Of a DNA stretch of 19,824 bases, positions 1 to 9,662 are shown in pieces. A model generated the notes under the pieces. The model made no database searches. It was not told the DNA's origin and saw nothing but the letters and a program-made list of their open reading frames with translations. Location of the stretch: IMG/VR virus record IMGVR_UViG_2585427788_000002. One strand, 5' to 3'. The position numbers and the translations under genes are program-made. Position 1 is the first letter of the stretch. Each line of letters opens with the position of its first letter. This DNA comes from a virus (Duplodnaviria > Heunggongvirae > Uroviricota > Caudoviricetes).

Positions 1-13
1 CATTGGAGAGCAG

Positions 14-379
14 ATGATTGATGTCTTAGGACCGGAGAAACGCAGACGGCGTACTACACAGGAAAAGATCGCTATTGTTCAGCAGAGTTTTGAACCGGGA
101 ATGACGGTCTCCCTTGTTGCCCGGCAACACGGTGTGGCAGCCAGCCAGCTATTTCTCTGGCGCAAGCAATACCAGGAGGGAAGTCTTACTGCTGTGGCCG
201 CAGGAGAACAGGTCGTTCCTGCCTCTGAACTTGCTGCCGCCATGAAGCAGATTAAAGAACTCCAGCGCCTGCTCGGCAAAAAAACGATGGAAAATGAACT
301 CCTTAAAGAAGCCGTTGAATACGGGCGTGCAAAAAAGTGGATAGCGCACGCGCCCTTATTGCCCGGGGATGGGGAGTAA
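14..379 (+). CDS. insC: IS2 transposase OrfA (InsC), DNA-binding subunit
   Basis: 121-aa translation [41 protein letters not shown]... recognised as IS2 InsC (HTH, leucine-zipper-like C-terminus). Confidence 0.9.
331..337 (+). other. Programmed -1 ribosomal frameshift site A_AAA_AAG (IS2 OrfA to OrfB)
   Basis: Heptamer A AAA AAG sits in the insC zero frame (codons 332-334 AAA, 335-337 AAG), inside the insC/insD overlap. This is the classic IS3-family slippery motif. Confidence 0.7.
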
Positions 380-1242
380 GCTTAGTCAGCCGTTGTCTCC
401 GGGTGTCGCGTGCGCAGTTGCACGTAATTCTCAGACGAACCGATGACTGGAAAGATGGTCGCCGCAGCCGTCACTCAGATGATACGGATGTGCTTCTCCG
501 TATACACCATGTTATCGGAGAGCTGCCCACGTATGGTTATCGTCGGGTATGGGCGCTGCTTCGCAGACAGGCCGAACTTGATGGTATGCCTGCGATCAAT
601 GCCAAACGTGTTTACCGGATCATGCGCCAGAATGCGCTGTTGCTTGAGCGAAAAACCGCTGTACCGCCATCGAAACGGGCACATACTGGCAAAGTGGCCG
701 TGAAAGAAAGCAATCAACGATGGTGCTCTGACGGGTTCGAGTTCCGCTGTGATAACGGAGAAAAACTGCGAGTCACGTTCGCGCTGGACTGCTGTGACCG
801 TGAGGCACTGCACTGGGCAGTCACTACGGGCGGCTTCGACAGTGAAACAGTACAGGACGTCATGCTGGGAGCGGTGGAACGCCGCTTCGGCAACGAGCTT
901 CCGGCGTCTCCAGTAGAGTGGCTGACGGATAATGGTTCATGCTACCGGGCTAATGAAACGCGGCAGTTTGCCCGGATGTTGGGGCTTGAACCGAAGAACA
1001 CGGCGGTGCGGAGTCCGGAGAGTAACGGCATAGCAGAGAGCTTCGTGAAAACGATAAAGCGTGACTACATCAGTATCATGCCTAAACCAGACGGGTTAAC
1101 GGCAGCAAAGAACCTTGCAGAGGCGTTCGAGCATTATAACGAATGGCATCCGCATAGTGCACTGGGTTATCGCTCGCCACGGGAATATCTGCGGCAGCAG
1201 GCCAGTAATGGATTAAGTGATAACAGGTGTCTGGAAATATAG
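337..1242 (+). CDS. insD: IS2 transposase OrfB (InsD), DDE catalytic domain; normally made as an InsCD fusion by -1 frameshift
   Basis: 301-aa translation with IS3-family integrase-core motifs (...WCSDGFEF..., ...[14 protein letters not shown]...); frame is -1 relative to insC and overlaps its 3' end. Confidence 0.9.
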
Positions 1243-1675
1243 GGGCAAATCCATTCGTAGCGCATCAATTCTTACGTTGATTATTAGTGGGATTATTATC
1301 GGGTGCACTGATGCTGTATCGACAAATTATCATGACCGTACATCATATTACTCCGATAAAGCAATAGAGACACAGTATGTGAGTTCATCTGAACGTACTT
1401 CTGATGTTAGTGAGGATATCCGTCTGTATGCCCATCAAATCAAGAGCGCCATCGAAAAACAGTTCGGGGATGCGAGTAAGTATTCAGGAAAAGAGTGTAC
1501 ACTGAGAATGCATATGGCCCCGAATGGCCTTCTACTGGAGGTTAAAAGAGAAAGTGGAGACCTCGATTTATGTCGTGAAGCGATGAATGCGATAAAGAAT
1601 GCTGATATACCTGCCCCCCCTTCGCCGGAAGTATATAAAGTATTTCAAAATGGGGTGCTGGATTTTAAACCCTGA
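1217..1675 (+). CDS. Lipoprotein with C-terminal TolA-domain-III-like domain; 5' end lies at the IS2 junction, so the native start is uncertain
   Basis: Lipobox [10 protein letters not shown]|T. The C-terminal ~85 aa ([82 protein letters not shown]) aligns by eye to the TolA C-terminal domain as I remember it, including the two Cys and the terminal LDFKP. The first 12 codons (GTG at 1217) are IS2 sequence. Confidence 0.6.
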
Positions 1676-1825
1676 TATTTATTGTTTTGTAATAAACGGT
1701 TTCGGCTTAGGTTTGTTCTGACACAGCTACGGCACTGAGCTAAATTTAGCGGATAGTCAGCTCTGAGCCAGTGGCGGACGTAACAACTACTATTGCTGAG
1801 ATTTTAATGGATTGAGGAGCAAGAA

Positions 1826-2221
1826 GTGGGATTAAAGAAAATCGTTATGTTGACTTTTTGGGTCGGTTTTGTTGCGGGATGCACACCTTTACACCCTTCA
1901 GATTGCCACAAAACTACTGCTACAGGTAGTTGCAGTTCAGGACGCTGGGATGATCAGGATGAATGGGGGGCGCAAGCGCGGGGAATCAGAGCTGCAATTA
2001 ATGCCAAACTTGATGAGCCGCATAACTGGAAAGGGAAAAAATGCAGGTTGCATATGGAATTCTCTCAGGATGGCACGGCGTTAAAAATATCTACCAGTAA
2101 CGGTGATAAAGCCTATTGCGAAGCGATAAAGTCCGCAGCTCATAAAGCCAAATTTCCGGCCTTCAACAATCCGGAAGTCTACAGAGATTTTCAGAAATCT
2201 GGCTTTGACATGCGAGGTTAG
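1826..2221 (+). CDS. Lipoprotein, divergent paralogue of the upstream TolA-III-like protein
   Basis: GTG start 6 nt after GAGGAG (1814-1819); signal peptide plus lipobox WVGFVAGC|T; C-terminal half (KCRLHMEFSQDGTALKISTSNGDKAYCEAIKSAAHKAKFPAFNNPEVYRDFQ) shares the Cys...Cys...PEVY..F pattern with the upstream gene. Confidence 0.65.
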   Translation: MGLKKIVMLTFWVGFVAGCTPLHPSDCHKTTATGSCSSGRWDDQDEWGAQARGIRAAINAKLDEPHNWKGKKCRLHMEFSQDGTALKISTSNGDKAYCEAIKSAAHKAKFPAFNNPEVYRDFQKSGFDMRG

Positions 2222-2346
2222 CTCTTCAATTACTATATCTCATTCATAGCAAACTGACAGATTTGATGATGTTCTATATACGAAACCTGTGATGTCAAGT
2301 CTGAGCTAATACAAATAAACATAATATCAGAGAAATACATTTTATT

Positions 2347-2369
2347 AGCTCGCTACGGCGAGCTTTTTA
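2347..2369 (+). terminator. Rho-independent terminator; candidate tR'-like late-region terminator or terminator of the lipoprotein transcript
   Basis: Perfect 7-bp stem AGCTCGC/GCGAGCT with TACG loop followed by TTTTTAT, about 100 bp upstream of the holin start. Confidence 0.55.
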
Positions 2370-2472
2370 TATTGCATCGTCTCCAGCATATATATCAATT
2401 AAGGCTCTGATTGATGTGTCTGAAAGCCTACACATAATAACTATGCCATCCGTTCCGTGCGGAGGTGAGGCT

Positions 2473-2688
2473 ATGAAATCCATGGACAAAATTTCAACAG
2501 GCATTGCCTACGGCACCTCCGCAGGCAGTGCTGGCTACTGGTTTTTACAGTTGCTCGATAGAGTAACTCCGTCACAGTGGGCTGCAATCGGTGTGCTGGG
2601 TAGTCTGGTATTTGGCCTGCTGACGTACCTGACAAACCTTTATTTCAAGATTAAAGAAGATAAGCGCAAGGCTGCGAGAGGTGAATAA
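2473..2688 (+). CDS. Class II pinholin, phage 21 S family, with dual-start (antiholin/holin) motif
   Basis: Strong RBS GGAGGTGAGG (2461-2470). N-terminus M-K-S-M-D-K gives two in-frame starts (2473 and 2482) as in the phage 21 S gene; two predicted TM helices; charged C-terminus [11 protein letters not shown]; stop overlaps the endolysin start (TAATG). Confidence 0.85.
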
Positions 2689-3185
2689 TGCCTCCATCAT
2701 TACGAAAAGTCGTTGCTGCTGCTATTGGTGGCGGAGCAATTGCTATAGCATCAGTGTTAATCACTGGCCCAAGTGGTAACGATGGTCTGGAAGGTGTCAG
2801 CTACATACCATACAAAGATATTGTTGGTGTATGGACTGTATGTCACGGGCATACAGGAAAAGACATCATGCTCGGTAAAACGTATACCAAAGCAGAATGC
2901 AAAGCCCTCCTGAATAAAGACCTTGCCACGGTCGCCAGACAAATTAACCCGTACATCAAAGTCGATATACCGGAAACAACGCGCGGCGCTCTTTACTCAT
3001 TCGTTTACAACGTGGGTGCTGGCAATTTCAGAACATCGACGCTTCTTCGCAAAATAAACCAGGGCGATATCAAAGGCGCATGTGATCAGCTACGTCGCTG
3101 GACATATGCTGGCGGTAAGCAATGGAAAGGTCTCATGACTCGTCGTGAGATTGAGCGTGAAATCTGTTTGTGGGGTCAGCAATGA
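2688..3185 (+). CDS. SAR endolysin (signal-anchor-release lysozyme, phage 21 R / T4-lysozyme family)
   Basis: N-terminal Gly/Ala-rich weak TM segment ([18 protein letters not shown]) followed by a lysozyme-type E-x8-D-x5-T catalytic spacing ([17 protein letters not shown]); directly downstream of the pinholin. Confidence 0.9.
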
Positions 3186-3646
3186 ACAGAGTAACCGCGA
3201 TTATCTCCGCTCTGGTTATCTGCATCGTCGTCTGCCTGTCATGGGGTGTTAATCATTACCGTGATAACGCCATCGCCTACAAAGAACAGCGCGACAAAAA
3301 TGCCAGAGAACTGAAGCTGGCGAACGCGGCAATTACTGACATGCAGATGCGTCAGCGTGATGTTGCTGCGCTCGATGCAAAATACACGAAGGAGTTAGCT
3401 GATGCGAAAGCTGAAAATGATGTTCTGCGTGATGATGTTGCCGCTGGTCGTCGTCGGTTGCACATCAAAGCAGTCTGTCAGTCAGTGCGTGAAGCCACCA
3501 CCGCCTCCGGCGTGGATAATGCAGCCTCCCCCCGACTGGCAGACACCGCTGAACGGGATTATTTCACCCTCCGGGAACGACTGGTAATGATGCAGGCCCA
3601 ACTTGAAGGTGCTCAGCAATACATAACCGAGCAGTGTTTAAAGTAA
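3182..3646 (+). CDS. Rz: Rz inner-membrane spanin (i-spanin)
   Basis: ATGA overlap with the endolysin stop; N-terminal TM helix ([16 protein letters not shown]) then a coiled-coil-type periplasmic domain; Rz1 is embedded in its +1 frame. Confidence 0.8.
3402..3587 (+). CDS. Rz1: Rz1 outer-membrane lipoprotein spanin (o-spanin), embedded in the +1 frame of Rz
   Basis: 61-aa ORF wholly inside Rz in another frame; lipobox LVVVGC|T; proline-rich mature region ([18 protein letters not shown]) typical of Rz1. Confidence 0.8.
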
Positions 3647-3783
3647 AATCTTAACTACAATATGATTCATTTTGATGATTGTTTCATAAGGAACAGTGAA
3701 GTAAGATCTAAGAGGAGTTAAATTTTATACAGTATAATCATAATATTGCAGCAAGGTGGTTATAATTGAAAGAATATTTAGAT

Positions 3784-5241
3784 ATGAATACATCTCATGT
3801 AAGAGTTGTTACTCATATGTGTGGGTTCCTGGTTTGGCTCTATAGTCTTTCAATGTTGCCACCAATGGTTGTAGCATTGTTTTATAAAGAAAAAAGCCTG
3901 TTCGTTTTCTTTATAACTTTCGTTATATTTTTTTGCATTGGTGGCGGAGCGTGGTATACAACTAAGAAATCTGGCATTCAATTACGTACCCGTGATGGGT
4001 TTATTATAATTGTAATGTTTTGGATTTTGTTTTCTGTTATTAGTGCATTCCCTTTATGGATTGACTCAGAACTTAATTTAACGTTCATTGATGCTCTGTT
4101 TGAAGGGGTTTCTGGAATAACAACAACAGGAGCAACTGTAATTGATGATGTTAGTTCATTACCTCGGGCATATTTGTACTATCGGTCACAGTTAAATTTT
4201 ATAGGTGGTTTAGGAGTTATTGTTCTGGCGGTTGCTGTATTGCCATTATTGGGTATTGGTGGTGCAAAGCTTTATCAGTCAGAAATGCCGGGGCCATTTA
4301 AGGATGACAAACTCACTCCCCGCCTGGCCGATACGTCACGGACACTGTGGATAACTTATTCTTTATTAGGTATTGCTTGTATTGTCTGTTATAGACTTGC
4401 AGGAATGCCTTTGTTTGATGCTATTTGTCACGGGATTTCCACAGTTTCGCTTGGTGGTTTCTCAACTCATAGCGAGAGTATCGGATATTTTAATAACTAT
4501 TTGGTTGAGCTGGTGGCTGGTTCTTTTTCCCTGCTATCGGCTTTCAACTTCACTCTTTGGTATATTGTTATTAGCAGGAAAACGATAAAACCTTTAATCA
4601 GAGATATTGAACTTCGTTTCTTTCTGTTAATAGCCTTAGGGGTGATCATTGTTACCTCTTTCCAGGTCTGGCATATAGGTATGTATGACTTGCATGGAAG
4701 TTTTATTCATTCGTTTTTTCTTGCCAGCTCCATGCTCACTGATAATGGTTTAGCTACGCAGGATTATGCAAGTTGGCCCACGCACACGATAGTGTTTTTG
4801 CTGTTGTCAAGTTTCTTTGGGGGATGTATAGGTTCAACTTGTGGTGGAATTAAGTCACTTCGATTTCTTATACTTTTCAAACAAAGCAAACACGAGATAA
4901 ATCAGCTTTCTCATCCCAGAGCGTTGTTGAGTGTAAATGTAGGAGGGAAGATAGTTACAGATCGTGTAATGAGGTCTGTATGGAGTTTCTTTTTTCTTTA
5001 TACTCTCTTCACGGTGTTTTTTATACTGGTGTTAAATGGTATGGGATATGATTTTCTTACATCATTTGCAACAGTGGCTGCATGTATTAATAATATGGGA
5101 TTAGGTTTTGGGGCTACTGCATCGTCATTCGGAGTGCTTAATGACATTGCAAAATGTTTAATGTGCATAGCTATGATTCTTGGTCGCCTTGAAATTTATC
5201 CTGTTATTATATTGTTTTCAGGTTTTTTTTGGCGCTCCTAA
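3784..5241 (+). CDS. trkG: TrkG, Trk-system K+ uptake membrane protein (Rac-prophage moron)
   Basis: Translation matches E. coli TrkG (from memory) along its length: multi-pass membrane protein with TrkH-family motifs. The gene is far more AT-rich than flanking phage DNA. Start placed at ATG 3784 (MNTSHVRVV...) rather than the upstream TTG at 3766. Confidence 0.9.
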   Translation: MNTSHVRVVTHMCGFLVWLYSLSMLPPMVVALFYKEKSLFVFFITFVIFFCIGGGAWYTTKKSGIQLRTRDGFIIIVMFWILFSVISAFPLWIDSELNLTFIDALFEGVSGITTTGATVIDDVSSLPRAYLYYRSQLNFIGGLGVIVLAVAVLPLLGIGGAKLYQSEMPGPFKDDKLTPRLADTSRTLWITYSLLGIACIVCYRLAGMPLFDAICHGISTVSLGGFSTHSESIGYFNNYLVELVAGSFSLLSAFNFTLWYIVISRKTIKPLIRDIELRFFLLIALGVIIVTSFQVWHIGMYDLHGSFIHSFFLASSMLTDNGLATQDYASWPTHTIVFLLLSSFFGGCIGSTCGGIKSLRFLILFKQSKHEINQLSHPRALLSVNVGGKIVTDRVMRSVWSFFFLYTLFTVFFILVLNGMGYDFLTSFATVAACINNMGLGFGATASSFGVLNDIAKCLMCIAMILGRLEIYPVIILFSGFFWRS

Positions 5242-5327
5242 TATATGGCTGATTTATAATTGTGAGTTTAATATTATGTTGACTCACTCATTGATCCAAT
5301 ACCTAACTTTACCAGCAACCCCTCCGT

Positions 5328-5378: not shown

Positions 5379-6170
5379 ATGAGCGAGAAATTAAAGATAG
5401 TCTATCGCCCATTACAAGAATTGTCACCGTATGCGCACAACGCCAGGACGCACAGCCCTGAGCAGGTGGCACAACTGGTAGAAAGTATTAAGCAATTCGG
5501 CTGGACTAATCCGGTGCTGATTGACGAAAAGGGCGAAATTATTGCGGGTCACGGTCGTGTTATGGCGGCTGAAATGCTCAAAATGGATTCTGTTCCGGTC
5601 ATTGTTCTGTCTGGCCTGACGGATGAGCAGAAAAAGGCGTACCGCCTGGCAGATAATCGCCTGCCGATGAATGCTGGCTGGGATGAAGATCTGTTGCGGA
5701 TGGAGCTGTCGGACCTAATCAATGCTGATTTTGATGTCTCCCTGACAGGCTTCATCCCGACAGAAATTGATGAACTGTTGACGGATGTTTTGCCCGGTAC
5801 AGGAAATGAGGAGGAGCCGTATACGACGAAAATTGATACGCCTGTTTATGAGCCGTCGGGCGGTAAACCGGATATCAGTGAACTGTACGACGATACGAAA
5901 ACTCAGGAGCTGATCAGCCGGATACGTTCGGCGTCCCTTGAGCCTGATATTGAGAAATTCCTCCTGTGTGCGGCAGAACGTCACACGGTGTTTAATTTCA
6001 GCAGAATTGCGGACTATTACGCTCACGCCCCCTCTGAAATTCAGTGTTTTTTCGAGGAGTCGGCGCTGGTGATCATTGATTATCAGCAGGCTATTGAAAA
6101 TGGATTTGTCCGGATGACGCAGCGCATGGTGGAGATCATGCATGGTGGTGAGGAGGAGGAATATGCGTGA
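5379..6170 (+). CDS. ParB-like nuclease (ParB/Srx) domain protein
   Basis: The N-terminal ~110 aa (KIVYRPLQELSPYAHNARTHSPEQV...GEIIAGHGRVMAAEMLKMDSVPVIVL...RLADNRLPMNAGWDEDLL) has the ParB N-terminal domain signature seen at the N-terminus of many phage ParB-methyltransferase fusions. The C-terminal ~130 aa is unrecognised and ends in an acidic tail GGEEEEYA. Confidence 0.75.
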   Translation: MSEKLKIVYRPLQELSPYAHNARTHSPEQVAQLVESIKQFGWTNPVLIDEKGEIIAGHGRVMAAEMLKMDSVPVIVLSGLTDEQKKAYRLADNRLPMNAGWDEDLLRMELSDLINADFDVSLTGFIPTEIDELLTDVLPGTGNEEEPYTTKIDTPVYEPSGGKPDISELYDDTKTQELISRIRSASLEPDIEKFLLCAAERHTVFNFSRIADYYAHAPSEIQCFFEESALVIIDYQQAIENGFVRMTQRMVEIMHGGEEEEYA

Positions 6171-7095
6171 TGATTTTTGCGCCTTTATTCTGACTCACGG
6201 GCGACCGGACAAAGTTCTGACTTACCGGACGTTGCGTCGTGCTGGCTATACCGGGAAAATTTTTATCGTTGTTGATGATGAAGATAAGACACGAAATCAG
6301 TACATGGCTGAATTTGGTGAACAGGTGCTGGTGTTTTCCAAAGCCGATATCGCCAGTCGTTTTGACGAAGCCGATAATTTCTGTGACCGCCGCTCAATTT
6401 TTTACGCCCGTAATGCCTGTTTCGACCTGGCAAAACTGGTCGGGTGTAAATACTTCATTCAGCTCGATGATGATTATCACGAGTTCCAGTTTCGGGTGGA
6501 TCGCAACTATGACCAGGCCTATTTTCCGATAAGGAAACTGGATGCGATCCTTTCTGAAATGCTGGCGTACTACGAATCAATACCTGCTCTTTCCATCGCT
6601 ATGTCGCAGGGCGGGGATTTTCTTGGTGACAATGGCGGCCATGCTTCGTGGGTGAAACGCAAGGCAATGAACAGCTTTATCTGTTCGGTTGATCGACCGT
6701 TCTCATTCATGGGGCGCATTAACGAGGATGTGAATACGTACACGAATCTCGGTCGCTGTGGTGAATTGTTTATGACGATCGGTGCTGTCCAGTTAGGGCA
6801 GAAACAGACGCAGAAAAACAGCGGCGGAATGACCGAGCTGTATCTGGATTCCGGAACCTACGTTAAAAGTTTTTACTCCGTCATGTATGCGCCGTCGTGC
6901 GTAAAAATCTCACTGATGGGTGCCAGCCATAAACGCATTCACCATCAGGTCACCTGGAACAACGCTGCAGTAAAAATCCTTCACGAAAAATACAGGAAGA
7001 AGACACCCTGCATATCAATGGGGGTGACAAATGATTCCGTATTCGAAAGTCGAGTCTCTGGCAGCGTGCCGGATGACTGCACAACAAATCGCTGA
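6163..7095 (+). CDS. Hypothetical protein with DxD-type motifs (possible GT-A-like nucleotide-sugar transferase fold), translationally coupled to the ParB-like gene
   Basis: ATG 6163 about 6 nt after AGGAGG (6151-6156), overlapping the ParB-like stop. Contains IFIVVDDEDK and FIQLDDDYHE acidic motifs spaced as in GT-A folds; no methyltransferase motifs seen. The fold assignment is a guess. Confidence 0.5.
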   Translation: MRDDFCAFILTHGRPDKVLTYRTLRRAGYTGKIFIVVDDEDKTRNQYMAEFGEQVLVFSKADIASRFDEADNFCDRRSIFYARNACFDLAKLVGCKYFIQLDDDYHEFQFRVDRNYDQAYFPIRKLDAILSEMLAYYESIPALSIAMSQGGDFLGDNGGHASWVKRKAMNSFICSVDRPFSFMGRINEDVNTYTNLGRCGELFMTIGAVQLGQKQTQKNSGGMTELYLDSGTYVKSFYSVMYAPSCVKISLMGASHKRIHHQVTWNNAAVKILHEKYRKKTPCISMGVTNDSVFESRVSGSVPDDCTTNR

Positions 7096-7282
7096 CGTTC
7101 TGGATGTTGATCTGAACCGACTGAAAGAAAATCGGGAAGCAATGACAGATTTTTATGCGGCCATCCGTAAGGGCAGAGCGAAAGGTGAAGCCGAGTTACG
7201 AGCGGCATTGTTTAAGCTTGCCAGAAAAGGGGATGCCTTTGCTCTGCGCGAACTACTCAGGGTGGATAAAAATCAGGACTAA
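7031..7282 (+). CDS. Small hypothetical protein with HTH-like segment (MTAQQIADVLDVD); start uncertain (7031 or 7073)
   Basis: 83-aa ORF just upstream of terS; possible DNA-binding or packaging accessory protein; no confident family match by eye. Confidence 0.4.
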   Translation: MIPYSKVESLAACRMTAQQIADVLDVDLNRLKENREAMTDFYAAIRKGRAKGEAELRAALFKLARKGDAFALRELLRVDKNQD

Positions 7283-7285
7283 CTG

Positions 7286-8380
7286 ATGAGCAGACCGGAC
7301 TGGGGGGCGTTGCAGCAGGAGTATATTGCTGAATACACCCGCTCCGGTATATCTCCGGTGGCATGGTGTGAAGCAAGGGGACTGAATTACGCAACAGCCC
7401 GTCGTTACATCAAAAAAACTCCGAAAAATGCGCAGACAGAAATGTGCAAAACTGCGCAAAAAAGTGCGCAGAAAAAATCTGCGCAGACTGCACAAAAGCG
7501 GAACGAAAAATCTCAGGAAAAAAAGCCAGTATTCGATGCGGGCCTGAATGAGGGCGACGCGGAGGAATTTTCGTTCTGTCCCGATGAATTCGGCATTTCT
7601 GACCAGCAGGCTAAGTTTGCGATGCTTGTTGCTCAGGGTAAAAAGCCGACAGAGGCGTACCGACTAGCCGGTTATGAGGGGCAAGGTGCGACAGCTAACA
7701 GCAACGCCAGTCGTATGCTTAGAAATGCCAGGGTTTTTCGCGCTATCAGCTACTTCCGCAATCAGTACCAGAAACGCTATACCGCAGACCTGGATTTACT
7801 AGTGAGTCAGTTGATGGCTATTGTCCTGGCCGACCCCAATCAGCTTGCACAATTTCGCCGTGTTAACTGCCGTTATTGCTGGGGCGAGAATCATCTCTAC
7901 CAGTGGCGCGATATAGCAGAATTCGACAAGGCAGCGGCGCAGGCTTCCAGAGATGGCAAACCCGAACCGGAATATGGAGGCCTCGGCTTTGTTGATAACG
8001 CCATACCCAATCCGGACTGCCCGAAGTGCTGCGGTGAGGGAACGGGACAGCTTTATATGGCTGATACCACTCTGCTTGATGGGGATGCGCGGCAATTATA
8101 TGCAGGGGCAAAATTCGGAAAATTCGGCGTTGAGATCCTGCTGGAGGATAAGGCTGCCGCCCGGCGTGAATTGTTGCGTTTGTTTTCTGCTGGCGGGGCT
8201 TTATGTGCAGATAAACGGCTACAGGAACTGGAAATTGAACGGCGCAGAATGGAAAACCAGAAGCTGCGCAAAGAGATCGAAACGGTGGAAGATAATGAAC
8301 ATCCCCAGCCTGTGGCGATCAATATTAATGTGGTTGATGCCAGAGTAAGGAGTGATGAAGATGATCTCTCCGACGCTTAA
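7286..8380 (+). CDS. Terminase small subunit (TerS), with N-terminal HTH, low-complexity linker and C-terminal Cys cluster
   Basis: N-terminal HTH (GISPVAWCEARGLNYATARRYI); central region FAMLVAQGKKPTEAYRLAGYEGQGATANSNASRMLRNARV typical of small-terminase domains; sits immediately upstream of the large terminase. Confidence 0.75.
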   Translation: MSRPDWGALQQEYIAEYTRSGISPVAWCEARGLNYATARRYIKKTPKNAQTEMCKTAQKSAQKKSAQTAQKRNEKSQEKKPVFDAGLNEGDAEEFSFCPDEFGISDQQAKFAMLVAQGKKPTEAYRLAGYEGQGATANSNASRMLRNARVFRAISYFRNQYQKRYTADLDLLVSQLMAIVLADPNQLAQFRRVNCRYCWGENHLYQWRDIAEFDKAAAQASRDGKPEPEYGGLGFVDNAIPNPDCPKCCGEGTGQLYMADTTLLDGDARQLYAGAKFGKFGVEILLEDKAAARRELLRLFSAGGALCADKRLQELEIERRRMENQKLRKEIETVEDNEHPQPVAININVVDARVRSDEDDLSDA

Positions 8381-9662
8381 TGTGCCTCAGGCGCGATTTC
8401 TTTCAATGCCCCATAAATTTAAAGCCTATATTGCTGGTTTTGGCTCGGGCAAAACATGGGTTGGGTGTGGCGGCATATGCAAGGGGATTTGGGAGCATCC
8501 AGGTATAAATCAGGGATATTTTGCGCCAACGTATCCCCAAATTCGCGATATTTTTTACCCTACAGTGGAAGAAGTTGCTGCTGACTGGGGATTGAACGTA
8601 AAAATTAATGAGGGAAATAAAGAGGTTCACTTTTATTACGGACGCCAGTATCGGGGAACCACTATCTGCAGATCGATGGAGAAGCCACAAACGATCGTCG
8701 ATTTCAAAATTGGTAATGCGTTGGTGGATGAACTGGACATTTTGCCGAAGGAAAAAGCCAGAACGGCGTGGCGCAAGATAATTGCACGTATGCGTTATAA
8801 GATTGATGGACTTCGCAACGGTATTGACGTTACAACCACGCCGGAAGGATTCAAATTTGTCTACGAGCAGTTTGTTAAAGCCGTGCGTGAAAAAACAGAG
8901 CTGGCCTCACTGTATGGTCTGGTGCAGGCATCTACTTTCGATAATGAAAAGAACCTGCCAGCAGATTACATTCCTTCGCTTCTTGAATCATACCCTCCAG
9001 AGCTGATTAAAGCCTATCTTCGAGGACAGTTTACTAACCTGACAAGTGGTACTGTTTACCATCAGTTTGACCGGAAACTGAATAATTGCGAAGAAGTGGA
9101 GCAGCCAGGGGAGCCGATTTATATTGGGATGGATTTTAACGTTGGAAAGATGGCGGGAATCGTCCATGTGCTGCGTTTGGGGCTTCCATGTGCGGTAACT
9201 GAAATCATCAATGCCTACGATACGCCGGATATGATCCGCATCATTAAAGAACGCTTCTGGCTGTATGATGGGAATGATTACCGGAAAGTGAGGGAAATTT
9301 ATATTTATCCAGATGCTTCCGGGGATTCCAGAAAATCAAGTAACGCAAGTACGACGGATATAGCCCAGCTTAAGCAGGCTGGTTTTAACGTTGTGGTGAA
9401 CAGCTCGAACCCGCCAGTAAAAGATCGCGTTAACTCAATGAATGCAATGTTCTGCAATGCCAATGGTGAGCGTCGCTATAAAGTTAATGTGAAGCGTTGC
9501 CCGTTATATGCCGAATCTCTGGAGCAACAGGTCTGGGATGAGAAGGGGGAGCCTGATAAAAAATCTGGCAATGATCACCCGAATGATGCCGGAGGTTATT
9601 TCATCGTTAAGCAATTCCCTATTGTCAAACCGACCGGAAGAGTCACATCACTTCGGATTTAA
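8361..9662 (+). CDS. Terminase large subunit (TerL), ATPase plus nuclease
   Basis: Walker A AGFGSGKT near the N-terminus; C-terminal RNaseH-like nuclease region (YPDASGD); RBS AAGGAG (8347-8352) before ATG 8361. Alternative starts GTG 8352 and ATG 8355. Confidence 0.9.
   Translation: MISPTLNVPQARFLSMPHKFKAYIAGFGSGKTWVGCGGICKGIWEHPGINQGYFAPTYPQIRDIFYPTVEEVAADWGLNVKINEGNKEVHFYYGRQYRGTTICRSMEKPQTIVDFKIGNALVDELDILPKEKARTAWRKIIARMRYKIDGLRNGIDVTTTPEGFKFVYEQFVKAVREKTELASLYGLVQASTFDNEKNLPADYIPSLLESYPPELIKAYLRGQFTNLTSGTVYHQFDRKLNNCEEVEQPGEPIYIGMDFNVGKMAGIVHVLRLGLPCAVTEIINAYDTPDMIRIIKERFWLYDGNDYRKVREIYIYPDASGDSRKSSNASTTDIAQLKQAGFNVVVNSSNPPVKDRVNSMNAMFCNANGERRYKVNVKRCPLYAESLEQQVWDEKGEPDKKSGNDHPNDAGGYFIVKQFPIVKPTGRVTSLRI

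Follow-up and report, generated by a model that had tools for sequence, protein, structure and literature searches.

TolA domain III-like lipoprotein genes in a Rac-like prophage and on other enterobacterial mobile elements: candidate decoys for Tol-dependent colicins and filamentous phages

Described systems closest to the gene pair

The DNA analysed here, a stretch of 19,824 nucleotides from IMG/VR virus record IMGVR_UViG_2585427788_000002 (the window), is a Rac-like prophage containing two adjacent genes, gene 1 and gene 2, for lipoproteins that carry a domain related to the C-terminal domain of the host protein TolA (domain III, TolA-III). Both proteins belong to the domain family of E. 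coli TolA-III (residues ~334–421; structures 1S62, 3QDP, 1TOL and 2X9A), have its fold and its disulfide, and align to it without gaps. The C-terminal VLDFKP and most of helix α1 and of the colicin A box are retained in gene 1, and the pattern of strand β3 in gene 2. Unlike TolA, the phage proteins are without domains I and II, have no link to TolQR and the proton-motive force, and carry an N-terminal lipid that would hold them at the opposite membrane. Their genes are also on mobile elements, their domains are 59 % (gene 1) and 34 % (gene 2) identical to that of TolA, and gene 2 is without all three lysines of the colicin A cation-π contacts.

The ligand-binding surfaces of TolA-III have been described. 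Strand β3 (A415–K420) and helix α1 bind the N1 domain of the filamentous-phage protein g3p (g3p-N1), colicin N and the N-terminus of TolB by β-strand augmentation (PMC4339652; 10.1101/790931; PMC7391070), and the TolA substitutions D418P and K420P cause colicin N resistance together with a leaky tol phenotype (PMC4339652). Colicin A is bound at strand β2 (375-LLDIKP-380) and K368, K379 and K396 (PMC3365938). The affinity is ~1 µM for colicin N versus 44 µM for a TolB peptide (10.1101/790931; PMC4339652).

The lipoproteins Cor (lambdoid phages such as N15 and φ80) and Llp (T5) are small phage-encoded outer-membrane lipoproteins that are specified by accessory genes and block the entry of phages and colicins from the periplasmic side (10.64898/2026.03.26.714494). 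They act on the receptor FhuA and are without a TolA-like domain, whereas the target proposed here is the TolA-binding element of the invader, or TolB, through mimicry of a periplasmic co-receptor. By analogy, these exclusion lipoproteins would be the nearest functional counterparts of the proteins described here; the comparison is one of function alone, and a sequence relationship was neither found nor expected.

Overproduction of E. coli TolA-III in the periplasm reportedly confers tolerance to group A colicins and Ff phages and also makes the cells leaky. This laboratory 'tol phenocopy', said to be obtained also with g3p-N1 or a colicin T-domain, would involve competition with native TolA and is the effect proposed here, but it is artificial and uses the host's own domain, whereas the domains in the window are diverged, lipid-anchored and naturally encoded. 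With respect to genomic position, the lambda morons bor and lom and the Shiga toxin genes (stx) of Stx phages are late-region accessory genes with their own expression signals. In intact relatives, the gene pair, between Q plus tRNA genes and the holin gene, is in the stx slot (Q, tR', tRNA genes, cargo, holin) and has a layout suggestive of a moron; the proteins and their functions are unrelated to those of Bor, Lom and Stx.

TolA-III domains, ligand faces and distribution of the two lineages

Both proteins match the Pfam family of the TolA C-terminal domain (PF06519; gathering score 25 bits), gene 1 with 82.4 bits (E 2.7e-23) over residues 59–150 of a 152-aa open reading frame (ORF) and gene 2 with 54.6 bits (E 1.3e-14) over residues 44–125. 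The gene 1 product can be aligned with E. coli TolA 334–421, the part present in the solved structures, with no gaps, 52 of 88 residues being identical (59 %) and the C-terminus (LDFKP) the same. The gapless alignment of gene 2 with TolA 340–419 contains 27 identical residues in 80 (34 %), and its match to the solved structure 1S62 (E 5e-9) is gapless as well. Cysteines equivalent to the C363/C388 disulfide pair of TolA are retained in both and are invariant in the two family alignments (A3 and A4).

The AlphaFold models of both proteins have the α/β fold of TolA-III (a helix, two strands, two helices and a C-terminal strand) preceded by a disordered tether (predicted local distance difference test score, pLDDT, <50). 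For gene 1, pLDDT was >90 across the domain and the top match among solved structures was 2X9A_B, TolA in complex with IF1 g3p (target-normalised TM-score 0.96, root-mean-square deviation (rmsd) 0.6 Å). For gene 2, pLDDT was ~90 over residues 45–130 and the top match was 3QDP (E 5e-8, rmsd 1.1 Å, target-normalised TM-score 0.89). Close similarity of the gene 1 domain to host TolA, including both cysteines and the terminal LDFKP, had been proposed from the sequence in the original prediction, and the profile, sequence and structure comparisons bear out a TolA-III domain in both proteins.

The same prediction had described two adjacent lipobox genes in which the cysteine is followed by threonine, and this agrees with what was found. 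Lipoboxes were identified as a signal peptide ending in [LVI][ASTVI][GAS]C without Asp at +2. The intact gene 1 product is 142 aa long (N-terminus taken from the uninterrupted relatives L001 and L002, introduced below) and has the lipobox IIGC followed by TD. Gene 2 begins with a GTG start codon preceded by a GAGGAG ribosome-binding site, and its signal peptide, MGLKKIVMLTFWVGFVAGC followed by TP, ends in the lipobox VAGC. Residue +2 is thus T in both, and A, G, S or T in homologues. In place of the inner-membrane anchor of TolA domain I, both have lipoprotein signal peptides, predicted to be cleaved at the lipobox, and just 25–35 residues separate the lipid cysteine from the domain, with no Ala/Lys-rich helical domain II. 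On the basis of these sequence features, both are probably lipoproteins sorted to the outer membrane.

The genes are outside the tolQ-tolR-tolA-tolB-pal operon, with an insertion sequence (IS), phage lysis genes and trkG as neighbours. Against NF007065, the NCBIfam model of full-length TolA, gene 1 and gene 2 scored 107.6 and 53.7 (cut-off 213) and matched only model positions 293–386 of 387. RefSeq annotates gene 1 as a tolA pseudogene with a missing N-terminus (L001 and L005), because a stand-alone domain has been compared with full-length TolA. We rejected this label for intact gene 1 copies, in which the lone domain exceeds the TIGR02794 cut-off (75.3 versus 59.45). The domain assignment itself is already in the databases, as a Pfam architecture, as the RefSeq product 'cell envelope integrity TolA C-terminal domain-containing protein' and as PHROG 5772, which both proteins match and which groups phage proteins of unknown function. 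A link to a 'TolA' at EDL933_2012 in a ciprofloxacin transcriptome paper was not used; the supplement of that paper gives a tail fiber protein.

The two proteins differ in how much of the ligand-binding surfaces they retain. At positions 415–421, which include strand β3 and the C-terminus, TolA has APLDFKP, gene 1 GVLDFKP and gene 2 SGFDMRG. In the colicin A box (375–380), the corresponding sequences are LLDIKP, LLEVKR and ALKIST, and positions 368, 379 and 396 are K, K and K in TolA, H, K and K in gene 1, and E, S and H in gene 2. Gene 1 has therefore retained β3 (VLDFKP) and most of the colicin A site, including two of the three cation-π lysines, while gene 2 has retained the hydrophobic-Asp-hydrophobic-basic pattern of β3 (GFDMRG) and lost the colicin A site. 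When 58 stand-alone lipoproteins were compared with 49 long TolA-like proteins in 83 six-residue windows, the lipoproteins were more variable nearly everywhere (mean entropy difference +0.43 bits). The two windows in which they were relatively best conserved, 341–346 (helix α1) and 415–420 (β3), form the face that binds g3p, colicin N and TolB. This is suggestive of the α1/β3 face being the best-retained part of the wider lipoprotein family.

Comparison of prophage, plasmid and chromosomal copies of gene 2 gave ratios of non-synonymous to synonymous substitution (dN/dS, Nei–Gojobori) of 0.08–0.17; for gene 1, the values were 0.09–0.34 in the domain and 0.3–0.6 in the linker. Because these values indicate purifying selection, strong in gene 2, the intact copies are best regarded as functional genes and not as debris. 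The diversifying selection of an arms race was not seen, all pairwise domain dN/dS values being well below 1. In gene 2, a linker containing a Cys-x8-Cys loop (residues 20–44) precedes the TolA-III domain (residues ~45–130), and this linker shows constraint equal to or stronger than that of the domain (dN/dS 0.015–0.10). Its conserved lipoCys-x7-Cys-x8-Cys loop is followed by GRWDDQDEWG, and the cysteine spacing recurs in distant family members; AlphaFold confidence for the gene 2 linker is low. The Cys-loop linker is likely to be a second functional element.

Relatives of gene 1 fell into 47 clusters, and every match with a named organism was from E. coli or Shigella. In the examples looked up, the gene was always between a Q-type antiterminator gene and a P21-type holin gene in a lambdoid prophage, usually without gene 2. 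Presence of the pair is thus variable, some other prophages having gene 1 but not gene 2, and K-12 Rac is not known to have either. Relatives of gene 2 were more widely spread, with 370 clusters across Citrobacter, Enterobacter, Serratia, Klebsiella and Raoultella, and the protein is 78–88 % identical across several genera, with synonymous divergence (dS) between lineages mostly 0.4–1.1. A 429 bp segment, consisting of gene 2 and a 30 nt leader that includes the ribosome-binding site, shares ~87 % nucleotide identity with a gene on ~600 plasmids (annotated examples are L003, L004, L017 and L018), and the megablast match is confined to this segment (query positions 543–971). In IncB/O and IncK2/Z (I-complex) plasmids, the homologue is a backbone gene in the transfer region, 68 nt after the relaxase gene and on the same strand, and in pO157 it is upstream of toxB. 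In Enterobacter, Citrobacter and Serratia it is found as a lone gene in non-phage chromosomal settings. The original prediction had called gene 2 a divergent paralogue of gene 1. They do share the domain, at ~31 % protein identity, but separate lineages suit their differing host ranges and contexts better than a plain tandem duplication does.

Searching 1.84 billion representative sequences with a profile identified 701 relatives. Among the best 150 of these, 148 were newly retrieved, of which 96 were no longer than 170 aa, and 62 of the 96 had a lipobox-like motif in the first 45 residues. Lipobox-bearing stand-alone TolA-III proteins made up at least 58 clusters at 50 % identity. The idea that these genes are common in isolated lambdoid phages was rejected, since only one of 50,697 sequenced phage records contained them; they are instead a feature of prophages, plasmids and chromosomes. 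Some relatives (P0171, 323 aa; P0176, 235 aa; P0221, P0248, P0292 and P0315) have non-lipoprotein signal peptides or longer N-terminal regions, and secreted stand-alone TolA-III therefore occurs in both soluble and lipid-anchored forms. A third lipoprotein lineage, found on ~300 Klebsiella plasmids, is 144 aa long with the lipobox LITAC and the C-terminus ALDFRL. In the one such plasmid examined, a conjugative IncFII plasmid of K. pneumoniae (L025, bases 4812–5246), the gene directly follows a thioredoxin-fold gene. In Serratia marcescens (L010–L013, bases ~6001–8736), the gene 2 homologue adjoins genes for a GmrSD-type (PF03235) and a HEPN_RiboL-PSP protein, in a small defence-like islet flanked by nrdDG and an arsenic permease-family gene (ArsP, PF03773).

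In the window itself, gene 1 is truncated at its 5′ end by an IS3 family element that we take, from its InsC and InsD sequences, to be IS2. The right end of this element, ...GGGGCAAATCCA, is at base 1253, and homology to two uninterrupted loci, a chromosomal prophage in E. coli ECCHD184 (L001) and phage mEp460_ev081 (L002), begins exactly at base 1254. These relatives read ...GAGGAAAAATGGGTTTTCGTAGC..., with intact gene 1 starting seven bases before the breakpoint; its ATG, Shine-Dalgarno sequence and promoter-like site have all been lost from the window. ORF 1217–1675, which opens at a GTG within the IS, was listed for gene 1 in the original prediction, which missed the IS2 disruption; because the IS removed the start codon, ribosome-binding site and promoter of gene 1, this ORF is an IS-fusion artefact, and normal expression within the window is likely for gene 2 alone. 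The exact IS junction was found in none of 5,426 complete E. coli genomes, 775 of which contain the stretch 1254–2400 at ≥99 % identity.

Strain FDAARGOS_1279 (L005, bases 3570–3720) has an independent, identically oriented IS2 48 bp further upstream, where it falls between the predicted –35 and –10 of gene 1; RefSeq labels it an IS3 family transposase with a programmed frameshift. Two IS2 insertions less than 50 bp apart suggest either an IS2 hot spot or selection on gene 1 expression. Gene 1 also includes a run of eight C residues, within codons for PAPPSP, at which a group of database variants (P0129–P0140) is frameshifted, altering the C-terminus. These variants may reflect slipped-strand variation or assembly error, many of them coming from automated read assemblies.

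Possible functions of the lipoproteins

From these features we infer an outer-membrane location, ligand binding, a decoy effect and a benefit to the carrier. Each lipoprotein would present a copy of TolA domain III on a short tether at the outer membrane. Because the copy is without domains I and II, it would not be coupled to the TolQR motor, and a bound ligand would be held unproductively. It would compete with host TolA for the ligands of the α1/β3 face: TolB through its N-terminal strand, filamentous-phage g3p through N1, and TolA-dependent group A colicins through their translocation domains. The gene 1 product may further compete for colicin A at the β2 box. The benefit under selection would most likely be that the carrier cell tolerates Tol-dependent bacteriocins, filamentous phages or both; a conjugative plasmid would chiefly face phages that enter by the pilus it encodes itself. 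As one entry event kills or infects, and the affinities of such ligands are above that of the TolB peptide, a modest decoy could protect the cell while Tol-Pal function is kept.

It seems to us probable that the proteins engage TolA-III ligands at the outer membrane in competition with TolA. A decoy that gives tolerance to colicins or filamentous phages, as the original prediction had proposed, is the best-supported candidate mechanism, and we would put its chances a little short of even. The location of gene 2 homologues on plasmids and at non-phage chromosomal sites points to a function that benefits the carrier cell. We propose only tentatively, and with somewhat more doubt, that enterobacterial mobile elements (lambdoid prophages, I- and F-type plasmids and chromosomal islets) carry a widespread class of decoy lipoproteins that mimic the tip of TolA and, at the inner side of the outer membrane, sequester those elements of g3p and group A colicins that bind TolA, conferring broad tolerance by co-receptor mimicry and, on plasmids, acting as a shield against pilus-specific filamentous phages.

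Several observations weigh against a decoy. Binding of TolB would inhibit Tol-Pal, at a cost in envelope integrity and in bile and detergent resistance, and suitable expression and affinity would therefore be needed. Retention of the β3 sequence is a weak pointer to any particular ligand, augmentation being mostly backbone-mediated, and the cluster representatives in the conservation comparison were unmatched sets, compared without formal statistics. The constrained Cys loop suggests an extra partner that a decoy does not explain. Gene 1 is often damaged in the databases, occurring in IS-fused and frameshifted forms, and because it has been broken repeatedly in these ways it is dispensable; the gene 1 homologues examined were in the late-gene slot of lambdoid prophages only, where a role in the lytic cycle would fit too. 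Neither protein matched the PADLOC library of anti-phage defence models at E values up to 1, and literature searches combining TolA with prophage, lipoprotein, moron, decoy and plasmid groups found no study of these proteins. Nothing relevant came from studies of the transcriptome of E. coli O157:H7 in soil and in water, of its proteome or of the SdiA regulon.

The proteins might instead sabotage Tol-Pal during the lytic cycle, a perturbation that the original prediction had offered as its alternative. A lipoprotein made from the late transcript would trap the TolB N-terminus at the outer membrane and block the release of Pal by TolA, loosening the outer membrane and speeding lysis or the escape of virions, vesicles or toxin. 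The position of the genes between Q plus tRNA genes and the holin gene, where the late, Q-antiterminated transcript would read them, is consistent with this, as is the finding that all examined gene 1 homologues are in this lambdoid slot, one of them adjoining a NanS-p-like esterase gene as in Stx phages. The TolB-binding β3 strand is also kept, and the leaky tol phenotype of TolA D418P and K420P indicates that this face matters for envelope integrity (PMC4339652). However, the presence of gene 2 homologues on plasmids and at non-phage chromosomal sites, where a lysis helper would make no sense, weakens such a role, an argument that covers gene 2 only. The unit also has its own promoter-like site and terminator-like hairpin, the phage already has a complete set of holin, endolysin and spanin genes, and the single occurrence among the phage records is not that of a regular part of a lysis cassette. 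We consider sabotage unlikely. A different role in the carrier cell, in which the Cys-loop linker and the domain would bind another envelope partner, either to aid or regulate conjugation on plasmids or to tune Tol-Pal or Pal, is improbable to a similar degree. It would account for the position of the gene 2 homologue just after the relaxase gene in the I-complex transfer region, for a linker as constrained as the domain with a cysteine spacing shared by distant members, and for the stable Enterobacter chromosomal copies among housekeeping-type genes. Against it, there is no obvious candidate for another partner, what has been kept best relative to TolA coincides exactly with the known ligand face, and the main text of a study of I-complex conjugation genes by transposon-directed insertion-site sequencing (TraDIS) and mutants makes no mention of such a gene, a weak negative (PMC10286972).

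Decay of tolA fragments captured by mobile DNA, left without function in a cryptic prophage, would explain the loss of the gene 1 start to IS2 in the window and the independent IS2 nearby in another strain, the many frameshifted or IS-fused gene 1 forms and the RefSeq tolA pseudogene label, and the host prophage is of the Rac-like, often defective, type. The pseudogene call, though, stems from the comparison with full-length TolA, and purifying selection on intact copies contradicts decay, as do the gain of proper lipoprotein signal peptides by both lineages, the cross-genus conservation of the gene 2 protein despite its synonymous divergence, and the breadth of the family, with its many lipobox-bearing stand-alone clusters. 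We regard it as very improbable that the genes are relics.

Should the decoy reading hold, it would represent a new principle by which mobile elements protect their hosts, as opposed to blocking a receptor (Cor and Llp) or encoding a toxin-specific immunity protein. A host periplasmic co-receptor would have been copied and parked at the outer membrane, where many Tol-dependent colicins and filamentous phages could be blunted together. The consequences would extend to colicin ecology in the gut, to the fitness of widespread resistance and virulence plasmids (IncB/O/K/Z, pO157 and Klebsiella IncFII) and to efforts to turn colicins or filamentous phages into antimicrobials or into agents against plasmids. 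Should Tol-Pal inhibition be their role instead, the proteins would represent naturally occurring, genetically encoded inhibitors of a system that is now pursued as an antibiotic target.

Locus structure and neighbouring genes

Features of the window are listed in Table 1. The gene pair had been assigned to a moron slot before the lysis genes, and holin, lysozyme and Rz/Rz1 genes are indeed found directly downstream; Q, tR' and the tRNA genes, in contrast, are beyond the window and are seen in relatives only. The order in L002 is antiterminator Q, a terminator (L002 bases 4681–4700), tRNA-Met(cat), tRNA-Arg(tct), a promoter-like site, gene 1, gene 2, a hairpin terminator and holin. The promoter-like site, TTGAGC-18-TATAAT (L002 bases 5935–5964), is 30 nt upstream of the gene 1 ATG in L002 and matches the consensus at 10 of 12 positions. 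The two-gene unit is closed by an intrinsic-terminator-like hairpin that is present in both the window and L002. These promoter- and terminator-like sites are consensus matches alone, and such sites were no more numerous than in shuffled sequence. No Rfam RNA family was matched in the window.

Table 1. Coordinates of features in the 19,824-nucleotide window
Feature	Position	Strand	Basis or remark
IS2-like insertion sequence, IS3 family	1–1253	+	ORF list and alignment to L001/L002; cut by window start
insC	14–379	+	part of IS2-like element
insD	337–1242	+	part of IS2-like element
Gene 1, 5′-truncated, lipoprotein with TolA-III domain	1254–1675	+	PF06519, TolA alignment, AlphaFold
Gene 1 lipobox Cys codon	1304–1306		
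Gene 1 disordered linker	to ~1408		
Gene 1 TolA-III	~1409–1672		
Gene 1 stop codon	1673–1675		
C8 homopolymer in gene 1	1615–1622	+	sequence
Mobile cassette (gene 2 and leader)	1796–2224	+	megablast against plasmids
Gene 2, intact, 131-aa lipoprotein with TolA-III domain	1826–2221	+	PF06519, TolA alignment, AlphaFold, dN/dS
Gene 2 Cys-loop linker	1883–1957		residues 20–44
Intrinsic-terminator-like hairpin, AGCTCGC-TACG-GCGAGCT and TTTTAT	2347–2372	+	terminator scan; ~100 nt before holin start
Lysis cassette as a whole	2473–3646	+	downstream of gene pair
P21-type holin	2473–2688	+	PF04971; longer ORF from 2416
Lysozyme	2688–3185	+	PF00959
Rz	3170–3646	+	PF03245
Rz1, embedded in Rz	3402–3587	+	
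trkG (potassium transporter gene)	3766–5241		directly after Rz/Rz1, as in Rac prophage
ParB_N-domain protein	5379–6170		between trkG and terminase genes
TET-associated glycosyltransferase	6142–7095		PF20691, E 8e-35

In L001, the RefSeq names in the lysis cassette are essD, rrrD and a lysis protein. Past trkG, the window continues with a full siphovirus set of head and tail genes (terminase, portal, P22-type coat, tail tube and tape measure), and with its lysis and structural genes present the prophage is presumably much less decayed than K-12 Rac. The genes for the ParB_N-domain protein and the TET-associated glycosyltransferase are side by side between trkG and these structural genes, a pairing that is typical of phage DNA-modification modules.

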